From positions 677-64,676 of IMG/VR virus record IMGVR_UViG_3300028591_000212: 64,000 bases of DNA. The stretch is one strand, 5' to 3'. Below the pieces are notes generated by a model. It was not told where the DNA came from. It saw nothing but the letters and a program-made list of their open reading frames with translations, and did no database searches. This document shows, piece after piece, positions 3,672 through 21,101 of this stretch (its first letter is position 1; each line of letters begins with the position of its first letter). The position numbers and the translations under genes were made by a program. This DNA is from a virus. Lineage: Duplodnaviria > Caudoviricetes.

Positions 3672-4190
3672 CTATTTGCAGTTGCAATTACAGTCTTTTT
3701 CAAATACTACATCTGTTGTGTAGAAAATGCCAGGTGTATCACTGAAAATATCTCTTGCAATATCTTCATACAATGTTGATTTATAGCCATTAGGGTTGTC
3801 CATCTGGTCATTATAGAACTGAACCACCTTATTAGCGAAAACAACATAGTTGAATGAGAATGCTGTAGTATCGCCTGCTGAAGCAATATAAGACAATGCT
3901 GAGTTGCCATCAAAAGCATCTTTTAATAATTCAAGTTTTGATGGAACACCATTTGTATCATTATCAGGGACTACTTTAATTTTTACTGTCACGTTACCGA
4001 AAACTTTTTGAGTTGGTAATAATTGAGTTAAAGCGTCTGCTTTTCTAGCACCGTGTACATATAATGCGATTTCTAATCCGTCATTGTCATCGGTATAAAC
4101 TACTTTAACATCTGGGTCGTTTTCAAATAACATTTCATACTCATGTAAATAAGTCATTCAAGGCGTTGATAATTTAAGATTGTTTGTCAT
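3672..4190 (-). CDS. conserved phage hypothetical protein (TGA=Trp at 4158-4160)
   Basis: GGAG SD before ATG 4190; MTNNLKLSTP[W]MTYLHEYEMLF... is in frame with ORF 3672..4157. Confidence 0.8.
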
Positions 4191-4510: not shown

Positions 4511-4631
4511 AAGACGCCCTTATTAAATGCTCCACCTATTGAGCTACACGTGTTTATAACACCTGATAGGACTCGAACCTATAACCTTTGGTTTTGCAGA
4601 CCATAAAGAATATTTTTGCTGAAAGCGTCTT
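4511..4631 (-). tRNA. circularly permuted tRNA-Cys(GCA) gene (3' half precedes 5' half, break at 27/28) inside an outer helix
   Basis: Order: TGGT-CTGCAAA-ACCAA (pos 28-43), AGGTT, ATAGG-TTCGAGT-CCTAT, CAGGTGT-T (66-73), ATAA, ACACGTG-TA-GCTC-AATAGGTG-GAGC-A-T (1-27). Flanked by AAGACGC.../...GCGTCTT. Confidence 0.75.
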
Positions 4632-6535: not shown

Positions 6536-7372
6536 ATAACCTGAGCGGGTGTTTTATTTTCACAAGGTATTTCCGATTTTGGTATCGGATTCCGCACACG
6601 CCCCATTTCTGAGGTCGTTCCCTGTGGCGAACAGTAGTTTTGTGAAAGCTACCAAACTCTTACTCTATCAACTTATAACCATTTTCATCATTAGTCTTGC
6701 TTGCGGCATTCACAGCTTGCGGGCTGCTAGATACTAATAACTACTTGCGGTTCGCATACACTCTTGCGGAGGATATGCGGGAGTATTTTTCAACTCTTAG
6801 GTTCGCTTGTATTGATAGGTGGGCTAGCACTTTTGCTTTTTCACAATATCATTTGATAAAGAAACTGTATTTTTCTTTAAATGTAATTTTCCTTCAAAAG
6901 TGTCATTGATATTCTTTTTTCGTAGACACGGCTGCCCTTTGGAACCAACTGGCTTTTGACCAGCCGCCATCCGGCGCCTACGTCTTTCCCTTGTCCTTGG
7001 TACTCGTCTCGTACTTTAGCCCTTCTTTTTCAAGTTTGGGGTTAATCATAGTTGTAAAGTTAGCATTTAGTCTGACAACATTCACACCAACAATCATATT
7101 TTCTCTATTGGCTCGTCACCTCACCCCAATGCATAGGGCTATGCCGCCGTGCTATCTGCCCGATACTTACGGCTCACTTGTGTGCTTAGTATAGGATACT
7201 CATATGGTTTTCCGTAGATAGCCTGCGATTTCAACTACTTGCGGCTCTTCGCCGTTTTAGTATCAACCATTATTGGCTACTGGGCAAAGCCGAATATCTA
7301 CGCTTTGTTCCCATTTATTCCCTCACGGGTTTATCCATTGTTGGGTACCGAAACCATACCCTTTGTGATTTC
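6536..7372 (-). ncRNA. large structured ncRNA, GOLLD-like (~840 nt)
   Basis: Own TTGCAA-N17-TATAAT promoter (7383-7411) and terminator; no credible ORF; raised GC; five CCGCAAG tetraloop caps (6700, 6716, 6744, 6763, 7238). 3' motifs GAGTAAGAGTTTGGT...CCTTGTGA...CTCAG resemble GOLLD as I recall it; family call unverified. Confidence 0.6.
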
Positions 7373-9076: not shown

Positions 9077-9808
9077 CTAGTCTTCCTCCTCTTCTAACAC
9101 TAAAACATTTACTTTACCACTATGAGCGGTACAAGCGTCAATCGCAATAATACCGTCATCTTCAAAAATACCAAAGTTGGCATCTTCCCCAAACTCACTA
9201 CCTTGTTTGTGTAGGTAGTGGTGTCCCCAAGAAGTATGCCAGTGTCCGCAAACAATGGTTTTTGCATCACGATGACCATTTTTCCATCTAGCCATACCGT
9301 TAAACCATCTTGCTTCTTCCCACTCATACTTGTCAGCATTGCCAGGAACACGCCAATCTACTACATTTGGTATCCAGCCATGTACGAAAACATAATTTTT
9401 AGTTTCATAGTAATTGCGGCACTCTTTAAAGTATTCCATTAAATCTTGATTTTTGCTCAAAGAACGAGTGGCTATATCAACAGCAAACCATTCTTCAGAA
9501 GGTGATAAACGCTTTATAGTATCAATAGTACCATTTGAAACATCGTAACTAAAATACCCACGTTTTCCTCTAACTAATTCTTCAAGTAAATCTTCGTGAT
9601 TACCACGAATAAAAATTCTTCTATCTTCTGGTAGATTCATTACATATTCTAAGCACTCTGCTGGCTTAGTTCCTCTATCAAAAAGGTCGCCACAAAGTAT
9701 GAAAAAATGCTCTGGGTTTGATTTTTGATACCCAGCTTTATCTAAAGCTAGAAGCATTTCGTCATAGAATGAGTGAACATCACTTACTATAAAATATTTT
9801 CTTTTCAT
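9077..9808 (-). CDS. calcineurin-like metallophosphoesterase
   Basis: SDVH, GDLFDRG, GNHE, VHG, GHWH motifs. Confidence 0.9.
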   Translation of the reverse strand: MKRKYFIVSDVHSFYDEMLLALDKAGYQKSNPEHFFILCGDLFDRGTKPAECLEYVMNLPEDRRIFIRGNHEDLLEELVRGKRGYFSYDVSNGTIDTIKRLSPSEEWFAVDIATRSLSKNQDLMEYFKECRNYYETKNYVFVHGWIPNVVDWRVPGNADKYEWEEARWFNGMARWKNGHRDAKTIVCGHWHTSWGHHYLHKQGSEFGEDANFGIFEDDGIIAIDACTAHSGKVNVLVLEEEED

Positions 9809-9867: not shown

Positions 9868-10995
9868 CTAAGCCATCATACTAATTAGATTAGCATAAGG
9901 TAAAAATTCGTTTTCTGGTTTGATTATGAATTGAATTTGTTTTACGGAAGTCATTACATCTTCTTCTCTAATTGGAGTTACATCGCCATAATCATCTTCA
10001 TATAACTTATCAACTTTATCCAAGAAGAAGAACTTGCCGTTCTTATCATATTTAATATTGGCTATTGAGAAACCAAGACAGCATTCGCCATTATATAAGT
10101 TATTTCCACTATCCAAGAAAAGGCGGGATTGTGGGCGATACCAGTCTATTGTGTAATTATCAACGGTATCCTTTTTGCCATTTTCATAATAAACAACGGC
10201 TTTAAATTTGCTAGGCTGACTAAACTCAATATTCAAATCGTTTAATGAAGAGCCAATATCATAGCCTTTATTTAATTCAATCGCTAAAGCACGCAGATTA
10301 TCATAAGTAAAAGGATAGAAAGTATCTAGACTTAGAATCTGCTGAATCAAATTTTCTTTATTGTCAACTGTGAGGTGGTCATTTAGATATTCCTCAACAG
10401 AATCGGCATCTGGTTTTGTTAATCTAAAATGGTAATAAAATCTGCCCGGGCGGTTCAGCATATAATCATTTAGCATATGAGTTTTATTACAAGTTATAAT
10501 ATATAACTTATTACCGCCATCAACCCCATCAAGCAAAGATAAGAAATCTGCTTGAGGGTCAAACCCAGTTTCTCTATCTTCAGCAAATTTCTTTTCAAAT
10601 TCATCAAAGATAACTACAACTCTCTGGTCAATTGACGCAAGAAAATCTGTTAGACCGGGGGTGTATTCTGAACACGTAATAACGGGAATGTTATTTTCTA
10701 TTGCCTTAATACAAATAAGACGCATTAAAATTGATTTTCCCATTCCACTTTCGCCAGATATAATAACGCCGAAATTACGATTGCTGGTTGAATATCCTTC
10801 TAAAACTTTATCGGCTTTTTCAGTTAAGCCGCCATAGATTTTAGTTTCCTTTACCTCTAACGGCGCACGCATAACTAAAGAATATCCAGTCATTTTATTG
10901 AAGTCAATATCATAATACTGTGCTGGCAGGTTATCATACGTATTAAGTACGTTTGAATAAATTATAAACCTATCTCCCGAATTAACTATCCGCAT
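9868..10995 (-). CDS. AAA+ ATPase
   Basis: Walker A GESGMGKS, Walker B VVIFDE, sensor TCN, LNRPGRF arginine finger. Confidence 0.9.
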   Translation of the reverse strand: MRIVNSGDRFIIYSNVLNTYDNLPAQYYDIDFNKMTGYSLVMRAPLEVKETKIYGGLTEKADKVLEGYSTSNRNFGVIISGESGMGKSILMRLICIKAIENNIPVITCSEYTPGLTDFLASIDQRVVVIFDEFEKKFAEDRETGFDPQADFLSLLDGVDGGNKLYIITCNKTHMLNDYMLNRPGRFYYHFRLTKPDADSVEEYLNDHLTVDNKENLIQQILSLDTFYPFTYDNLRALAIELNKGYDIGSSLNDLNIEFSQPSKFKAVVYYENGKKDTVDNYTIDWYRPQSRLFLDSGNNLYNGECCLGFSIANIKYDKNGKFFFLDKVDKLYEDDYGDVTPIREEDVMTSVKQIQFIIKPENEFLPYANLISMMA

Positions 10996-11806
10996 TGTTA
11001 AGCTCCTCTTTCATATACGTTCTCATAATTTTATTTAATACATCATCTAAAAATTTATCTGTCTCTTGGTTTGGTTTAAGTGACTCCGCAGGAGCGAAGC
11101 TCTCATATTCTTTTTTTAAACTAACTGCTCTATCTAAATATTCTTGAGCAATTTGTTCTGCTACTTCTGGAGTATAAGAAATTTGACCTCTTTTTACTTT
11201 ATGAAGATAATCCACACTAAAAGGAATTAAACAATCTTCATAAGGCACACCTTTTGAGTACATTTTCATGAACTCATAAACCCTAATCAAATGAGATAAT
11301 TGCTTTGGGTCATATCCAAATTTATCAAGCCAATATTTTCTGCTAGGATATTCATGTAATAAAGCATGGAATTTTTCCGAGCACATGCCGCACATAGTCT
11401 TCATAGCTTGAAGAGGATTGTAGTGGGCAATTTCTTCTTTTCTGCTGATTAATAAATCCCAATATTGCTGATAAATTGGATTAACAATAACATACTTTGT
11501 GAAAAGAGTTTCAACAAAGTTGATGTTTTGTTTTCTATATTGGTTAAACATTAGACGGATATCTTTAATGTCGATATGCTCATCGTTAGCACGCACATGC
11601 GTGTAAGATTTTGCTTCGTGATTAAAGATAATATCATCTAAGCTTGGCAAAACAATGGCTTTGCTGTCGATATCACTATCTTTATCCGCCATATTATAAT
11701 TTTGTGAGCCTTGTAAACATAATGCAAAAACTTGCTTTTCTGGAATAATAGTAAGCAATTCTTGGTAATGTTCTGCTAATCTTTTTTCAATTTCTTTCTT
11801 TCTCAT
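10982..11806 (-). CDS. Pol-beta superfamily nucleotidyltransferase (RlaP/NrdC.11-like)
   Basis: QGSQNY...DSDID catalytic motif; K.LSHLIR helical C-domain. Confidence 0.8.
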   Translation of the reverse strand: MRKKEIEKRLAEHYQELLTIIPEKQVFALCLQGSQNYNMADKDSDIDSKAIVLPSLDDIIFNHEAKSYTHVRANDEHIDIKDIRLMFNQYRKQNINFVETLFTKYVIVNPIYQQYWDLLISRKEEIAHYNPLQAMKTMCGMCSEKFHALLHEYPSRKYWLDKFGYDPKQLSHLIRVYEFMKMYSKGVPYEDCLIPFSVDYLHKVKRGQISYTPEVAEQIAQEYLDRAVSLKKEYESFAPAESLKPNQETDKFLDDVLNKIMRTYMKEELNNADS

Positions 11807-11844
11807 GGTATTTATATTATATCATAAAATTTTATAAAAATCAA

Positions 11845-12857
11845 AAAAAAACGCACCATCGTTTAAACCTCAAAGAACCTTGAAATTGGAGGTGTCCATC
11901 CCCCTCTCCATTGGAGTTGCGGACATTTTTTTAAATTTCGCCTTTCTATATCAGTTTGATGTGCGTATGGCTATTTTTATAGGTAATAGCAATCACCATC
12001 GGAGTTAATCTCTATCGGCTCCTCAATGTAGGAATCTGTACAAACTCTCGTCCGAAACGTAGGTCTCCTCACCTCGCACTATGCTTTTTTATTTTAGGAC
12101 GCCTCACCTATGCGAGAATTTCAAGTAGAGGTACGCCAATGAGCCAACCAAGCAAATAGAAAAGTGGGACTTGCGTGTTGTAAAGAGGTAATAAGATTTA
12201 TCTTGATTGACTCATTGCTGTATCTCTACAGCATATACTAACTACTCTTCAACTCCTTTGCACCGCTCCCAATTACATAGCGGAAATTTTTGGTGGTATG
12301 GTCGTAACCATAACCAAAGGTATTGTTCTATCTGGTTTTTCACTTACCAGTCCACAGCCGTGTGGTGAGTATCTCGTCGGCAATTATTTATCACCGGTAG
12401 CCTCGTTGATATTGAGTAATTATTAACTTAGTTGCAAATTGGGGGAAGAGTTGCGGATGTACTGTCGGCCTCTTGCTTCAAGGATATGATGGTTCTGGTC
12501 TCGTGTCGCAGAACTTTTCAGCACATCATATTCTCTAAATACTGGGTCATCATTATGGACAGGTATCTAATCGCCGTAGAGCTTTTTTATGATTAGAATT
12601 CATGCTGCGTACACCTTATGTCCGCCAACCCCTTTTTTCTTCAATCACTTGCTTTTTATCGCTACACATTGAAGGTTTCTGGTTTTAAGGCTCCAGTAGT
12701 CATTACATCCGATTGCTTTTTTGGTCTGAGAGATGAACTCTGCGGTCTTTAAGGCAACGCCGTTTCCTTATGTAAGCTAGAAAGGTAAGGGGCGTATATC
12801 CATCAGCTCTCGCCTTTTTATTCTAATGTGGACATAAACCTTTCTTATTTATCTTAC
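11845..12857 (-). ncRNA. candidate ~1 kb structured ncRNA, unassigned
   Basis: TTGAAA-N17-TATAAT promoter (12864-12892); U-rich end at 11843-11864; no ORF >=60 aa in the track; raised GC; many hairpins and a long-range TTATGTCC/GGACATAA helix. Confidence 0.55.
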
Positions 12858-12901
12858 ATATATATTATATAATATTTTTTTTAAAATTTCAAGCGATGAC
12901 T

Positions 12902-13072
12902 CTAATTAACTAAGTCACTATCGACCATAAAATCAATTAACATGGCTTTTAAAGTGTCTTCATCGAGCCACACTAAAATATGGTCTAGTAACTCGCCATC
13001 TGATACAGTACCATCAAGTAAGCTCAAAATTTCATCAGAGCTCATTTCTTCTAATTCTTTTTTATCGTACAT
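12902..13072 (-). CDS. small acidic protein (56 aa)
   Basis: MYDKKELEEMSSDEILSLLDG..., GGAG SD overlapping the upstream stop. Confidence 0.6.
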   Translation of the reverse strand: MYDKKELEEMSSDEILSLLDGTVSDGELLDHILVWLDEDTLKAMLIDFMVDSDLVN

Positions 13073-13074
13073 TG

Positions 13075-13308
13075 TTAATTGCTCCCTTCAGTTACGATTA
13101 GCATATTTGCATCATAAACAGTAGTTAAAACGTCAAACGCACAATTTACTTGATGAGCTTTAACTGAATCACCTTTGTCATTTAAGATTTCATATGGTTC
13201 TAGCATATCTGCTGCTGTGCTAATAGAGTGTAAAACTTTTAAAGCTTCCCCTATTTTCTTATGGTCATCTTCGCTAAGAAAAATTGTTTTAGTATTTATT
13301 ATTTTCAT
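13075..13308 (-). CDS. hypothetical protein
   Basis: 77-aa ORF; weak similarity to 24347..24598 and 27369..27623. Confidence 0.7.
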   Translation of the reverse strand: MKIINTKTIFLSEDDHKKIGEALKVLHSISTAADMLEPYEILNDKGDSVKAHQVNCAFDVLTTVYDANMLIVTEGSN

Positions 13309-16563: not shown

Positions 16564-17369
16564 ATACCCCTCTTAGTTTTATAGAAAAGGGTATAGAAAT
16601 ACCCCCAAAATGCCCGTAGAATGAGCTGTAGTAAAGAAAAAAATGGTAAAATGAGTATATACTCATAAAATGGGATAAAAATGCTGTAGAAAGGCTAAAA
16701 ATGGGGTTTTAGCGTTTTTGGCTAGATTACGGTGGTAGAACGAGGCTAGGTCGGTACTTTTGGTGTAGTGGGTGTGGCCCTCGCCTCCACACCTGCTGGA
16801 CATGGTTGAGACCAAACGCTATTAACGCCCCTTAACCGCCTGGGCCCGAGCCACGCTCACTAGCCTCCAATGAACAAGCCTTGCTTGCTGAAAGAAAAAC
16901 CCCCGGCATTGATACCAGGGTTTCTCATAGGCCATCCTCTACGCACGCCTATTGTAAATTGGAAAAAATTGTGATATAATTATAATGGAAAGGAGGAAAA
17001 TATTTAAAAGTTATAAGGGGAATTATCCTGTCTATTGATATAGACAGTTTTTAGCGTGCGTGCCTCGTATATATATAATCCCTTCCCATTTTATTATACC
17101 ATAAAAATTTTTAAAAGTCAAATTTGACAGCAAACTTTTTTTATGATATAATAGAATTGTAAGGGTGGGAGGGAGGGTACAATAATTTTGTTAATTTAGG
17201 GGTAGACTCTACTTAGCAAACCTTGAATAAAAAAATCCGGGGTGCCATTTTATTTCCTGGGGGTTATTTTGCGCGCCCGGTGGCGCCCCGGCAAAGCTTC
17301 AAGGAACTTTTTGGATTTTCATTTGAAAATTTTCAAAGGAACACGCCAAAAATTCATTAAAAAACATCG

Positions 17370-17811: not shown

Positions 17812-18165
17812 CTAGGCTACAGTGTAGAAAGCCTTTCTCTTTTCAACAGTCTTTACAAGCTTGCCTGCATCAACAAGACCGTTCATGATTGGAGTAGCTT
17901 TCTGAGAGCTGATAGCGAAGTTGTCAGCTACATCCTTGATAGCAACCTTAGCACCTGCATTTGCTACGAAATCGTATACATCGTTAGCAAGAGCTTCGTT
18001 AGCAATCTGAGTCTTAGTTGGCTTACGAGTAGCGTTCTTTGCTCTCTCAGCTTTCTTGTCAAGCAGTTCAATCTCACGGTTGCAGAAAGCAACAACATCA
18101 GTGTTGTCTGCCATAGCAGTCTTAATCATCTCGAAGTAATCTCTTTTAGTAACCTTGTTAGCCAT
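17812..18165 (-). CDS. early protein family A, copy 1 (C-terminal wHTH)
   Basis: MANKVTK...EI.LL..KAERAKNA..KP.K.Q..NE...IKD....ISSQKATP.MN.LV..GKL.K.VEKR. Confidence 0.85.
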   Translation of the reverse strand: MANKVTKRDYFEMIKTAMADNTDVVAFCNREIELLDKKAERAKNATRKPTKTQIANEALANDVYDFVANAGAKVAIKDVADNFAISSQKATPIMNGLVDAGKLVKTVEKRKAFYTVA

Positions 18166-18638
18166 AATTCTTTTTTCCTCCTATTTATATGTTTAACGTA
18201 GTTGTGAAGGTCAGTTCCAGAATTTTTTATATCTTCCCTTACCTTACATATTTATTATATCATATTTTTTTGAAAATATCAATGAAAATTTTTTGAAAGT
18301 TTTTTCAGAGGCTAGCCACCTGCATTACCTCTTAGATATAATAGTGTAGGGCTTGTCTTTTTTATCCCTTCCCTTACCTTACATATTTATTATACTATAA
18401 ATTTTTGAAAAAATCAATGAAAATAATCTTGAAAATATTTTCAGGAAATCGACCGAGCCCTCCAAGCTAGCCTCGACCGCTGCTGGAAATGTGGAGACCA
18501 GTGACCGGCGCAACTCGGAGTTTTAGGAGCGCGACGAAAAGTCGCGAGGCCGCTAGAAGTAGCGAAAAAATCCTGCTGGACATGTGAAGGCGAAAAAACG
18601 GCGCAACCCCTGCGAGAACGCGCCGCCAATCCACGGAC

Positions 18639-18722
18639 CCAGGTGTGCCAAAATCATTTCCCAGCACACGAGTACAGGCGTGCCAAAAATATTTCCCAAC
18701 ACACAGAGTCAGGTGTGCCAAG
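18639..18722. repeat. ~35-bp tandem repeat, about 2.4 copies
   Basis: CAGGTGTGCCAAAATCATTTCCCAGCACACGAGTA / CAGGCGTGCCAAAAATATTTCCCAACACACAGAGT / CAGGTGTGCCAAG. Confidence 0.8.
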
Positions 18723-18765
18723 TCAGACCCAAATAAAAAGCACTGGTCTAGCCAGTGCCTTTACA

Positions 18766-19110
18766 CTATCCGATTGAATAGTGAGCCACACGCTTTTCAA
18801 CTGCCTTGATGAGTTTTCCCTCATCTACAAGAGCGTTAAGCAATGGGGTAGCCTTTTGTGAGGAGATATCGAATTTAGAAGCGATATCCTTAATCACTAC
18901 AGAGCCAACAGAGGCGATATAGTCGAGCATTTCTGCCTTTAAGCCCTCATTAGCGACCTGCACTTTAGAAGGCTTACGTGAGGCATTTTTAGCCCTCTCT
19001 GCCTTATTTGCAAGCAAGTCAATCTCATGATTGATGAAAGCGATTTCCTCAACATCAGTTAAGTGAGAAGCGATACGAGCGAACATTTCAGATTTAGTCA
19101 TTTTAGCCAT
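18766..19110 (-). CDS. early protein family A, copy 2
   Basis: Alignable over full length with 17812..18165. Confidence 0.85.
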   Translation of the reverse strand: MAKMTKSEMFARIASHLTDVEEIAFINHEIDLLANKAERAKNASRKPSKVQVANEGLKAEMLDYIASVGSVVIKDIASKFDISSQKATPLLNALVDEGKLIKAVEKRVAHYSIG

Positions 19111-19393
19111 AAATTTTTTACCTTACCTTTCTGTATATATTATAGCACATGATTTGAATATGGGTTGTCCGTTTTTTTGGACACCTTTTTTCAAAGAGCC
19201 ATAAGGGTTCAAGGTCTTACCTATCCCCCTTACATTATTTATTATACATCATGAAAATTTTCATGCACATGAAAGTGTTTTCAGAAAGCGTTTTCATAGC
19301 CTTTTTTATTTCCCAGAAAATATTTCCTATTTCCCTAGATATTGCCTGGGAAATTTGGGAAATAAACTTTTTTAATTTTTTTCGCAAAAACCC

Positions 19394-19457
19394 TTGACAA
19401 AAATGCGTGAAGGTGGTATAATGGTAATTTCGCGGCGTGGCATCCGCCTGCGCCGCG
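19394..19457 (+). promoter_or_regulatory. rightward sigma70-type promoter plus GC hairpin element (1 of >=7)
   Basis: TTGACA-N17-TATAAT then CGCGGCG...CGCCGCG; similar elements at 20239, 21547, 22828, 24257, 25227 and 27953. Confidence 0.7.
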
Positions 19458-19518
19458 TCAATTTTGTCAAGTACTTTTTTAGGCATAAAAAAAGGTACCC
19501 GTGCGGGTACCAGTACCA

Positions 19519-19866
19519 CTAGGCAACTGTGTAGATTGCCTTGCGCTTTTCAACTCTCTTGGCAAGTTTGCCGTCATCTACAAGCGCATTCATAAGTGGA
19601 GTTGCTTTCTGTGAAGTAATGTCAAACTTTTCAACAACGTCCTTGATGTAAGTATCGCCGTTAGTAGCAACGAAGTTAGCAATTTCAGACTTTAAAGTTT
19701 CGTTTTCAATCTGAACCTTTGAAGGTTTCTTTGTTGCGTTCTTGGCTCTCTCGGCCTTGTTAGCAAGTAATTCAATTTCGTGATTGATGAAGTTGATTTC
19801 ATCTACATCTGTAAGATGAGAAGCAATCTGTTTGAACATTTCGGATTTAGTGATTTTGTTAGCCAT
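19519..19866 (-). CDS. early protein family A, copy 3
   Basis: Alignable over full length with copies 1, 2 and 4. Confidence 0.85.
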   Translation of the reverse strand: MANKITKSEMFKQIASHLTDVDEINFINHEIELLANKAERAKNATKKPSKVQIENETLKSEIANFVATNGDTYIKDVVEKFDITSQKATPLMNALVDDGKLAKRVEKRKAIYTVA

Positions 19867-20327
19867 AATTTTTTTACCTTTTTTAACCTTTCTTTCTTTA
19901 CATTTATATTGTATCAGATTTTTTATTATCTGTCAATACCTTTTTTAATTTTTTTTGTAAGATTTTTTTTATATCCCTTTCCTTATCTTACATATTTATT
20001 TTATCATACTTTTTTAAATGTGTCAAGAGATTTTATAAACTTTTTTTATTTTTTAGTTTATAACCTTAAGCGTCCTCAAGTGATTTCAGGGTGGTGCCAA
20101 ATGGATTGTTCAGCCCGAACTCTTCATCTCTTGACATTATTATTATAGCATATCTAAAATATAAGTCAAGCATTTTTAGGAAAATTTTTAAATGTGTACA
20201 AAAAAAGCGCCACCCTTCAAAAAATTAGCCAGTGCCCCTTGACAAAAAAATCGCGTTGTGCCAGCCGAGCACAACGCGCCCGGTTTGTCAAGTATTTTTT
20301 TAAAAATAAAAAAAAGCACCGGTGCCC

Positions 20328-20699
20328 TTAGGCTTTCGGTGCCCTGTGTTTAGTGAGTTTAAGCGAGTACTCGCACCCGTTGAGGATAAAGTCCACTTGA
20401 CCTTCGGCTTTGGGTACTTGTATATTTTCGCAAGTGCCCTCAAGTGCTTTTTCAATCAAGTTGATTACAAGTACCTTGTCTTTGTCAAGTACCTTTTCTT
20501 TTTTCACTCTTGGTTTGCGTTCTCTATCCACTTTTAATTTTGTGGCTTTGCGTTGTGCCTTTTCTTCTTCAAGTGTCGGCTCCCACTCGCAACGCTCACC
20601 CTTATCAATTTTTTTATCATCTTCAAGTGCCTTTGCAATTTCATCTTCGCTCATGCCTAATTTTCGCATAGCGTTTTTTCTTTTTTCAAGTTCATTCAT
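20328..20699 (-). CDS. early protein family B, copy 2
   Basis: Paralog of 17370..17732. Confidence 0.85.
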   Translation of the reverse strand: MNELEKRKNAMRKLGMSEDEIAKALEDDKKIDKGERCEWEPTLEEEKAQRKATKLKVDRERKPRVKKEKVLDKDKVLVINLIEKALEGTCENIQVPKAEGQVDFILNGCEYSLKLTKHRAPKA

Positions 20700-20756
20700 A
20701 CAAGTACCTCTTTTCTATTTAGAGGGTAGGTTTTTTTCCTACCCTCTTTTATTATA

Positions 20757-21101
20757 CTACATCAAAGAATATTTTGCAACTCTTTTTTCAACGACTTTGT
20801 TAAGTTTACCATCTTCAACAAGTGCGTTCATAAGTGGTGTAGCCTTTTGAGATGAAATTTCAAATTTTGCGGATACATCTTTTATAGTTGCGTTGTCAAC
20901 AGTAGCCATAAAATCTAGGATTTCGGATTTCAAATTTTCATTTGCGACTTGAACCTTTGAAGGCTTTCTAGTAGCATTTTTTGCTCTTTCGGACTTTCTA
21001 TCAAGTAAAGCGATTTCGTTATTGATGAAATTAATTTCATCAACATCAGTTAAGCGAGCAACAATTCTTTCAAACATTTCTTTCTTAGTAATTTTAGCCA
21101 T
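20757..21101 (-). CDS. early protein family A, copy 4
   Basis: Alignable over full length with copies 1-3. Confidence 0.85.
   Translation of the reverse strand: MAKITKKEMFERIVARLTDVDEINFINNEIALLDRKSERAKNATRKPSKVQVANENLKSEILDFMATVDNATIKDVSAKFEISSQKATPLMNALVEDGKLNKVVEKRVAKYSLM

Follow-up and report, generated by a model that had tools for sequence, protein, structure and literature searches.

The stretch considered here (positions 11845-12857, hereafter the unit) lies in a 64,000-nucleotide window, the whole piece of DNA that was analysed, which makes up most of a 64.7-kb IMG/VR phage contig with an estimated completeness of 36%. From position 1 to about 29 kb of the window every gene is carried by the minus strand. 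The unit occupies most of a 1,095-nt gap that contains no ORF of at least 60 aa and extends from the stop codon of a 56-aa ORF (12902) to the start of a 274-aa nucleotidyltransferase gene (11806). The features of the locus are collected in Table 1.

Table 1. Features of the unit and of the genes behind it, in window coordinates
Feature	Position	Strand	Evidence or remark
Early promoter, TTGAAA-17-TATAAT	12892..12864	-	11/12 consensus matches; predicted start near 12857
5′ leader, standard early-gene (protein-gene) type	12774..12857	-	direct sequence reading
Five-helix RNA module (tRNA-leader motif)	12634..12773	-	only conserved part of the unit; absent from Rfam 15
Lineage-specific remainder, ~790 nt, GC 0.42	11845..12633	-	no ORF, tRNA, terminator or detectable homolog
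11-bp hairpin, UACG (UNCG-type) tetraloop	12290..12318	-	z -2.85; anecdotal
Alternative 7-bp hairpin, GAGA (GNRA) cap	12215-12233	-	neighbour of the hairpin at 12290..12318; anecdotal
Long hairpin, 6+3+16 bp (25-bp interrupted), ~40-nt loop	12229-12125	-	pair probabilities 0.97-0.99
Second promoter, TTGATT-17-TATAAT with TG extension	11844..11816	-	right after the U-run of the unit; serves the nucleotidyltransferase gene
Pol-beta-type nucleotidyltransferase gene, weakly RlaP-like	10982..11806	-	phrog_388, 1.1e-16
ATPase gene, downstream of the nucleotidyltransferase	9868-10995		phrog_2376, 2.9e-89
Metallophosphoesterase gene, after the ATPase	9077-9808		phrog_246, 1.4e-33

The initial annotation, made from the letters alone, had described the unit as free of ORFs of 60 aa or more, richer in GC than its surroundings and preceded by a consensus promoter, and these three observations hold. 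The six-frame scan under genetic code 4 that it had called for agrees with the first of them: TAA and TAG codons break all frames of 11845-12857, the longest of which spans 80 codons. Indeed, TAA, TAG and TGA are each present in 6/6 frames, and no credible ORF appears there, whether code 11 or code 4 is used or any one stop codon is reassigned. Furthermore, six-frame tblastn, run with the unit on 80 related loci and on the window itself, yielded no protein similarity, and a PHROGs scan of its longest frames returned a single marginal match on the plus strand (E 0.0088), which was taken as noise. With its frames interrupted, and neither tblastn nor PHROGs giving a credible match, the unit is therefore noncoding.

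As for composition, GC amounts to 0.40-0.43 in the unit against about 0.30-0.34 in the flanks, and the remainder, at 0.42, stands above the coding DNA of the phage at 0.33. The ordinary ORF-free gaps of the window range from 0.21 to 0.32, and the gaps holding the tRNA array and the GOLLD-like RNA from 0.37 to 0.40. The unit thus resembles the RNA genes of this phage and not its spacers, so that its composition points towards RNA. A second ORF-free stretch with the same compositional signature is found at 16564-17369 (806 nt, GC 0.40); Rfam returned there, at E<=1, only a 30-nt noise match, and nhmmer a weak match in the related genome G054 (E 0.028).

The two promoters of Table 1 are the only sigma-70-like sites on the minus strand within 11500-13300. 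The first one, together with about 30 nt of leader (~50 nt in all), exists in seven near-identical copies in the genome, six besides that of the unit, and the same promoter-plus-leader type is also present in related phages; judged by these repeats, the predicted promoter of the unit is a member of a repeated early-promoter family. The leader itself carries an SD-like motif, AAGAAAGG (12846-12839), followed by a mini-ORF of 5 codons, ATG..TAA (12835-12818), and is predicted to be foldable into a hairpin that would sequester the SD-like motif (fold z -1.9). Homologs of the leader (12774-12857) were sought and none was found past the promoter-proximal ~30 nt. At the opposite end, the U-rich tract that had been noted is indeed there as a T-run, but it lacks a preceding stem and shares sequence with the -35/UP region of the following promoter, and so does not qualify as a terminator. 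A search of the unit for minus-strand terminators gave none, and read-through into the nucleotidyltransferase operon would therefore be the default expectation. On the plus strand, a terminator-like but wrong-facing element is present at 11890-11935, namely a TGTCC...GGACA hairpin around CTCC-ATT-GGAG followed by seven T; no plus-strand gene or promoter was found near it.

The unit had also been said to match no catalogued RNA, and the cmscan-type check, now run, found nothing in Rfam 15: over 11700-13000 and at E<=10, only three noise matches of 16-24 bits were returned, and nothing places the unit among group I/II introns, tmRNA, OLE, HEARO, raiA or any of the other families. The GOLLD model (RF02032, conserved 3′ domain) has no match in 11845-12857. 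The ROOL model (RF03087, 574 positions) reaches 6.6 bits (E 4) at 11801-11914 on the plus strand, i.e., on the wrong strand, against 283-350 bits for the same model in six related phages. The Intron_gpI model has no match in the unit region, although Rfam intron negatives must be read with the caveat that, at E<=0.1, Rfam also missed the tRNA-Leu intron of contig L188 described below. Finally, ARAGORN, with introns of up to 900 nt allowed, detected no tRNA or tmRNA in the unit.

The neighbouring RNA, some 5 kb away, proved to be GOLLD-like, as had been proposed, and the unit itself is not. This RNA, at 6538-6982 on the minus strand, scores 71.3 bits (E 4e-20; gathering score 150) and is the only GOLLD match of the genome. 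The nearest copy of the repeated promoter upstream of it (~7751-7693) lies ~700 nt before the matched domain, so that the RNA may exceed 840 nt. GOLLD-like RNAs below threshold are likewise present in the related genomes G091 (83.9 bits) and G054 (79.8 bits), both of which lack a counterpart of the unit and leave no gap in front of the nucleotidyltransferase gene. Among 50 relatives bearing the nucleotidyltransferase gene, ROOL occurs in 6 and GOLLD-like RNA in 2. In two loci, L032 (4317-4885) and L055 (4315-4884), a tRNA-flanked ROOL RNA of 284-288 bits precedes the homologous nucleotidyltransferase gene by ~1.1 kb and shares its strand. The complete 140-kb genome G049 carries both RNAs on the minus strand, ROOL at 96296-96930 (318.6 bits) and GOLLD-like RNA at 97477-97998 (149.1 bits), ~550 nt apart.

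Other structured RNAs were observed in tRNA arrays. In the window, the model of bacterial RNase P class B is partially matched within the tRNA array, at 1919-2163 on the minus strand (58.8 bits, E 1e-13, model positions 11-317, gathering score 97), and a weak match to YrlA, a Y RNA-like family, lies at the edge of the array at 4522-4590, on the same strand (32.4 bits, E 0.002). Inside the tRNA array of L040, from a related phage, a skipping-rope RNA (RF02924) at 2593-2662 scores 41.4 bits, above the gathering score.

Relatives of the unit exist for one part of it. When the unit was compared by BLAST with 96 whole related records, the module alone was matched, and in G091 alone, where positions 165624-165763 align at 86% identity with query positions 80-214 (window 12771-12637); this genome was found among 46 whole records of relatives picked through a late protein of 574 aa at about 70% identity. 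A covariance model built from the module then recovered a diverged copy in G093, and a pattern made of its invariant stretches led to three IMG/VR and seven metagenome contigs. Altogether, model and pattern scan bring the number of copies to 11, from about six lineages. Along the whole length of the model the window copy obtains 149.7 bits, and 10 other phage or metagenome contigs score 96-175 bits. The same pattern was absent from 185,579 bacterial and archaeal species genomes, and an Rfam search with five diverse copies assigned them to no family. The novelty of the module is thus stated with respect to Rfam 15; a catalogue of 10,006 viral candidate RNAs is reported in Fremin 2023 (PMC10690425).

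The module comprises a helix P1, a helix P2 with a 22-nt loop, a helix P3 capped by AGCCUUAAA, a helix P4 with a GUGUAG/AUGUG internal loop, and an apical stem. The P3 hairpin, absent from the automatic structure, was added to it: below the loop AGCCUUAAA, its strands read CUGG/CCAG, UACA/UGUA, CACA/UGUG, UUCC/GGAA or CGCA/UGCG in different copies. In the refined structure, 95.4% of the cells are paired, against 36-44% with slid partners, and double-sided changes affect 20/31 pairs, values that none of 500 shuffles reached. Fitting the alignment to the model biases it towards pairing; the P3 hairpin, however, lay outside that model, and the exchanges in P3 and P4 are plain in the raw alignment rows. 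Pairing of the P3 loop with the 5′ strand of P1 as a pseudoknot was considered and rejected, as it is not kept in the G091-type copies.

Dozens of nucleotides of the module are unpaired and near-invariant. The conserved stretches AAAGAC, AAAAGCAAA, GUAAUGACUA and GAACCU are all found in the aligned window copy, which is intact, retaining nearly all positions conserved in the others. Furthermore, homology ends sharply at the module boundaries, and the 86% identity of the module contrasts with 30-40% amino-acid identity in the adjacent gene family. The search for homologs and covariation over the entire ~1 kb, on which the initial annotation had staked its claim, came out against it: relatives and covariation are confined to 12773-12634. 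On this comparative evidence, the putative RNA module is a member of an uncatalogued tRNA-leader RNA family and the only part of the unit under demonstrable selection.

The name of tRNA leader comes from its contexts. In 7/10 other copies, the 3′ end of the module lies 0-2 nt from position +1 of a tRNA. The abutting gene encodes tRNA-Asn in L183, L189 and L191, tRNA-Met in L187, and an intron-less tRNA-Leu(UAA) in L190. In L188 (187-620), a tRNA-Leu(UAA) directly behind the module contains an intron of 351 nt, placed by ARAGORN -i behind anticodon position 36, the classical anticodon-loop site, and in L186 a tRNA-Leu(UAA)-type start follows the module from position 4147, the gene being cut by the contig end 84 nt on. 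In L187, moreover, the module starts ~15 nt past the -10 hexamer of a promoter, so that it can be the 5′ end of the primary transcript. Given that its 3′ end lies so close to the first tRNA nucleotide, cleavage of the pre-tRNA by RNase P would be expected to release a discrete module RNA.

In L183 (277-2915), L189 and L191, whose arrays are of the G093 type, every tRNA is set apart by a GC-rich spacer of 285-490 nt with no Rfam match, elements of which the module is just one. The arrays of L189 and L191 also include a tmRNA gene, with the tag ANYEYRMAA. Outside the arrays, the module of G091, G097 and L185 lies between the stop codon of a gene and the next promoter, with no abutting tRNA. In the window, it stands 85 nt behind the promoter, and a tRNA sought after 12634 with introns of up to 900 nt and lowered thresholds was not found; RNase P release, as envisaged for the other phages, therefore cannot apply to this copy. 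A degenerate tRNA directly after it was also considered and rejected, since the stems do not fit and ARAGORN was negative.

The remainder has a very different distribution. No homolog of it was detected in ~120 related phage records by BLAST, nhmmer or tblastn, a set that includes three complete genomes bearing the module or a GOLLD-like RNA. Searches by nhmmer with the leader, the remainder and 250-nt tiles found nothing in the complete genomes G091, G093, G054, G055 and G097 or in metagenome contigs; with filters off, the best E in the complete G091, G093 and G054 was 38. A single-sequence covariance model of 12120-12325 was run on 0.76 Mb from the nearest relatives and on 50 additional records and matched nothing, blastn in ‘distant’ mode with the whole unit had no match among GenBank phages, and the pattern GGTTACGACC...GTAGAGATAC gave three chance matches in IMG/VR. 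Relatives were also approached through the nucleotidyltransferase, whose homologs number thousands, the closest being P0002 (64% identity) and P0003 (57%) in Logan. A single-protein scan of IMG/VR with it did not find a close relative, and comparison of the unit by BLAST and nhmmer with 80 IMG/VR loci bearing this gene at 41-51% identity gave promoter matches only.

These negative results must be weighed against the reach of the methods. Used as an nhmmer query, the GOLLD-like RNA of the window attains E 0.05-0.08 in G054 and misses the homolog of G091 altogether, both being detectable by covariance model. Since true GOLLD-like homologs are nearly missed, the negative homology searches with the unit are weak evidence, and a strongly diverged homolog of the remainder may have escaped them. 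With the module of the window as query, nhmmer recovers every other copy, at E 1e-26 to 5e-7.

The hairpins listed in the initial annotation do exist, but they are not in excess: inverted repeats are no more numerous than in dinucleotide shuffles, and the observed count of 5-8-nt stems, local or long-range, is reached by 15-40% of shuffles. The long-range 8-bp helix that had been proposed is a chance-level feature, the 10 complements of 8 nt found comparing with 8.6 expected. In 200-nt windows, the folding z of the unit (mean about -0.8) resembles that of the coding flanks; values just as ordinary are obtained for the GOLLD-like RNA, and the covarying module gives +0.3, so that the test, blind to both, has no power here. 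No tandem repeats were found in the unit, and its predicted fold breaks into stem-closed domains.

One element stands out in the remainder. The long hairpin at 12229-12125 has a z of -5.08 on the minus strand (0/200 shuffles) against -3.05 on the plus strand; its 15-bp run includes two G-U pairs and is hence perfect on the minus strand only. Other sub-blocks of the unit have z near 0. Searched in 229 loci with 2 mismatches allowed, the stem was found at the window's own locus only. It could be regarded as a candidate processing or stability element of the RNase III type, i.e., double-strand-specific. Moreover, the two strongest tetraloop hairpins, with UACG and GAGA loops, have these special loops on the minus strand only, a post hoc observation that is suggestive.

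Taken as a whole, the stretch could be understood as a composite early noncoding transcript and not as one conserved giant RNA, a reading in which we place about even confidence. Transcription is predicted to start at the early promoter (12892-12864) and to produce an mRNA-type leader, the ORF of which would be reduced to 5 codons, and next the ~140-nt five-helix module (12773-12634). In related phages, cleavage by RNase P at the tRNA 5′ end, an established maturation pathway, would free the module. It might be a platform on which the tRNA precursor is protected or processed, or else an RNA with its own job, and the latter option would fit the window copy better, as this copy is devoid of a tRNA. 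Within the ~790-nt lineage-specific stretch that follows, the 25-bp hairpin would act in processing or stability, as the target of a double-strand-specific RNase, and the transcript would most likely extend into the nucleotidyltransferase-ATPase-phosphoesterase operon, for which it would form a long structured leader. The GC of 0.42, like that of the RNA genes, hints at more function in the remainder than the word leader implies.

The initial annotation had gone further, postulating a new class of giant RNA. That the stretch is noncoding, promoter-led and outside the catalogued families has stood; that it forms a single class of ~1,000 nt is not supported, conservation and covariation being those of 140 nt only. 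We consider it unlikely that the whole ~1,013 nt nonetheless makes up a single large, ornate ncRNA, representing a new class, in which the module would be one domain among others. Such an RNA would fill the niche of the GOLLD-like RNA 5 kb away and of the ROOL RNAs of related phages, as would be in keeping with an ORF-free, promoter-led stretch whose GC enrichment is as uniform as in the other RNA genes of the phage, with ROOL lying, in L032 and L055, ~1.1 kb ahead of the homolog of the nucleotidyltransferase gene, and with the adjacency of ROOL and GOLLD-like RNA in G049. The strand-specific GNRA and UNCG loops and the hairpin of z -5.1 point the same way, and at such divergence even true GOLLD-like homologs are nearly invisible to sequence searches. 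Nevertheless, nothing outside the module is conserved in the ~120 related records searched by BLAST, nhmmer and tblastn, the model of 12120-12325 has no matches, and the module is self-contained and sharply bounded in its other contexts. Moreover, G091 and G054 have a GOLLD-like RNA without a counterpart of the unit, hairpin counts are at chance level, and the terminator is absent; neither the defined 3′ end nor the whole-length conservation of a stand-alone large ncRNA gene was found.

A related and more ambitious proposal sees the module as a new functional class of phage RNA, released by RNase P in arrays and embedded here in an ornate RNA of ~1 kb beside the GOLLD-like RNA. It draws on the many near-invariant unpaired nucleotides, as in ribozymes and in ligand- or protein-binding RNAs, and if true it would add a third kind of giant tRNA-island RNA, but we regard it as quite improbable.

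We would give only a small chance to a third possibility, in which the unit is a string of independent small structured RNAs (the module, the long hairpin, a UACG three-way junction) cut apart after transcription, as it were a tRNA array without its tRNAs. The G093-type arrays, with the module among their GC-rich, 285-490-nt spacers lacking Rfam matches, offer a precedent, and the predicted fold splits into stem-closed domains; nevertheless, one element alone is conserved, the other blocks have z near 0 and no relatives, and tRNA-like processing signals were not found.

Rather doubtful, too, is a decaying cassette, in which an early gene would have lost its ORF, the module would be a recombination passenger and the ~790 nt would be acquired DNA, without function and gradually being lost: the protein-gene type of leader with its 5-codon stub, the position of the module just after a protein gene in G091, G097 and L185, the lack of relatives and the mostly unremarkable folding of the remainder, and the absence of a unit counterpart from the nearest relatives all agree with it, but no protein remnant was found (tblastn with the G091 neighbour proteins left the target unmatched and hit only window paralogs at 17815-21041), the GC of 0.42 exceeds both the 0.33 of coding DNA and the 0.21-0.32 of true spacers in an AT-rich phage, the module copy is intact, and the z -5.1 hairpin is perfect on the transcribed strand only.

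The idea of a record-size RNA class is thus corrected, as the data support 140 conserved nucleotides and not 1,000. The tRNA islands of large phages are crowded with large RNAs, GOLLD and ROOL among them, the structures of which are solved and the functions unknown; the family described here, which is smaller and covaries strongly, joins them and is physically attached to the 5′ ends of tRNAs of three identities, its proposed link to RNase P processing being directly testable. In turn, the tRNA-less copy upstream of the nucleotidyltransferase-ATPase-phosphoesterase operon offers a means of telling a role in cis, in the maturation of tRNA, from one in trans.

Several known systems offer points of comparison. 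RNase III processing hairpins are present in phage early transcripts, for example between the T7 early genes. The hairpin at 12229-12125 resembles them in its interrupted stem of ~25 bp, in its place on a predicted early transcript of the polycistronic type and in lying upstream of a gene with its own promoter; unlike the classical sites, it is not conserved and its apical loop of ~40 nt is larger. Pre-tRNA 5′ leaders and transcribed spacers are released by RNase P, and small RNAs derived from spacers exist, but ordinary leaders are short and unconserved. The module, in contrast, measures 140-160 nt, has five helices, is kept before three tRNA identities and also occurs away from tRNAs, in the G091-type phages and in the window. 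Skipping-rope RNAs (RF02924) and YrlA-like Y RNAs (RF02553) share its genomic niche, the phage tRNA arrays, and the module differs from them in having no match to their models, another architecture and no likeness to a tRNA.

Finally, ROOL (RF03087) and GOLLD (RF02032) are phage-borne, ORF-free, GC-enriched structured RNAs located near tRNA genes (PMC5737381), and the unit is, as they are, phage-borne, ORF-free and enriched in GC. Both form multimeric cages (bioRxiv 10.1101/2024.12.08.627333). They are also larger, ROOL having ~580 nt and GOLLD ~800 nt against the conserved ~140 nt of the module, and they are merely nearby where the module directly abuts the tRNA 5′ ends.
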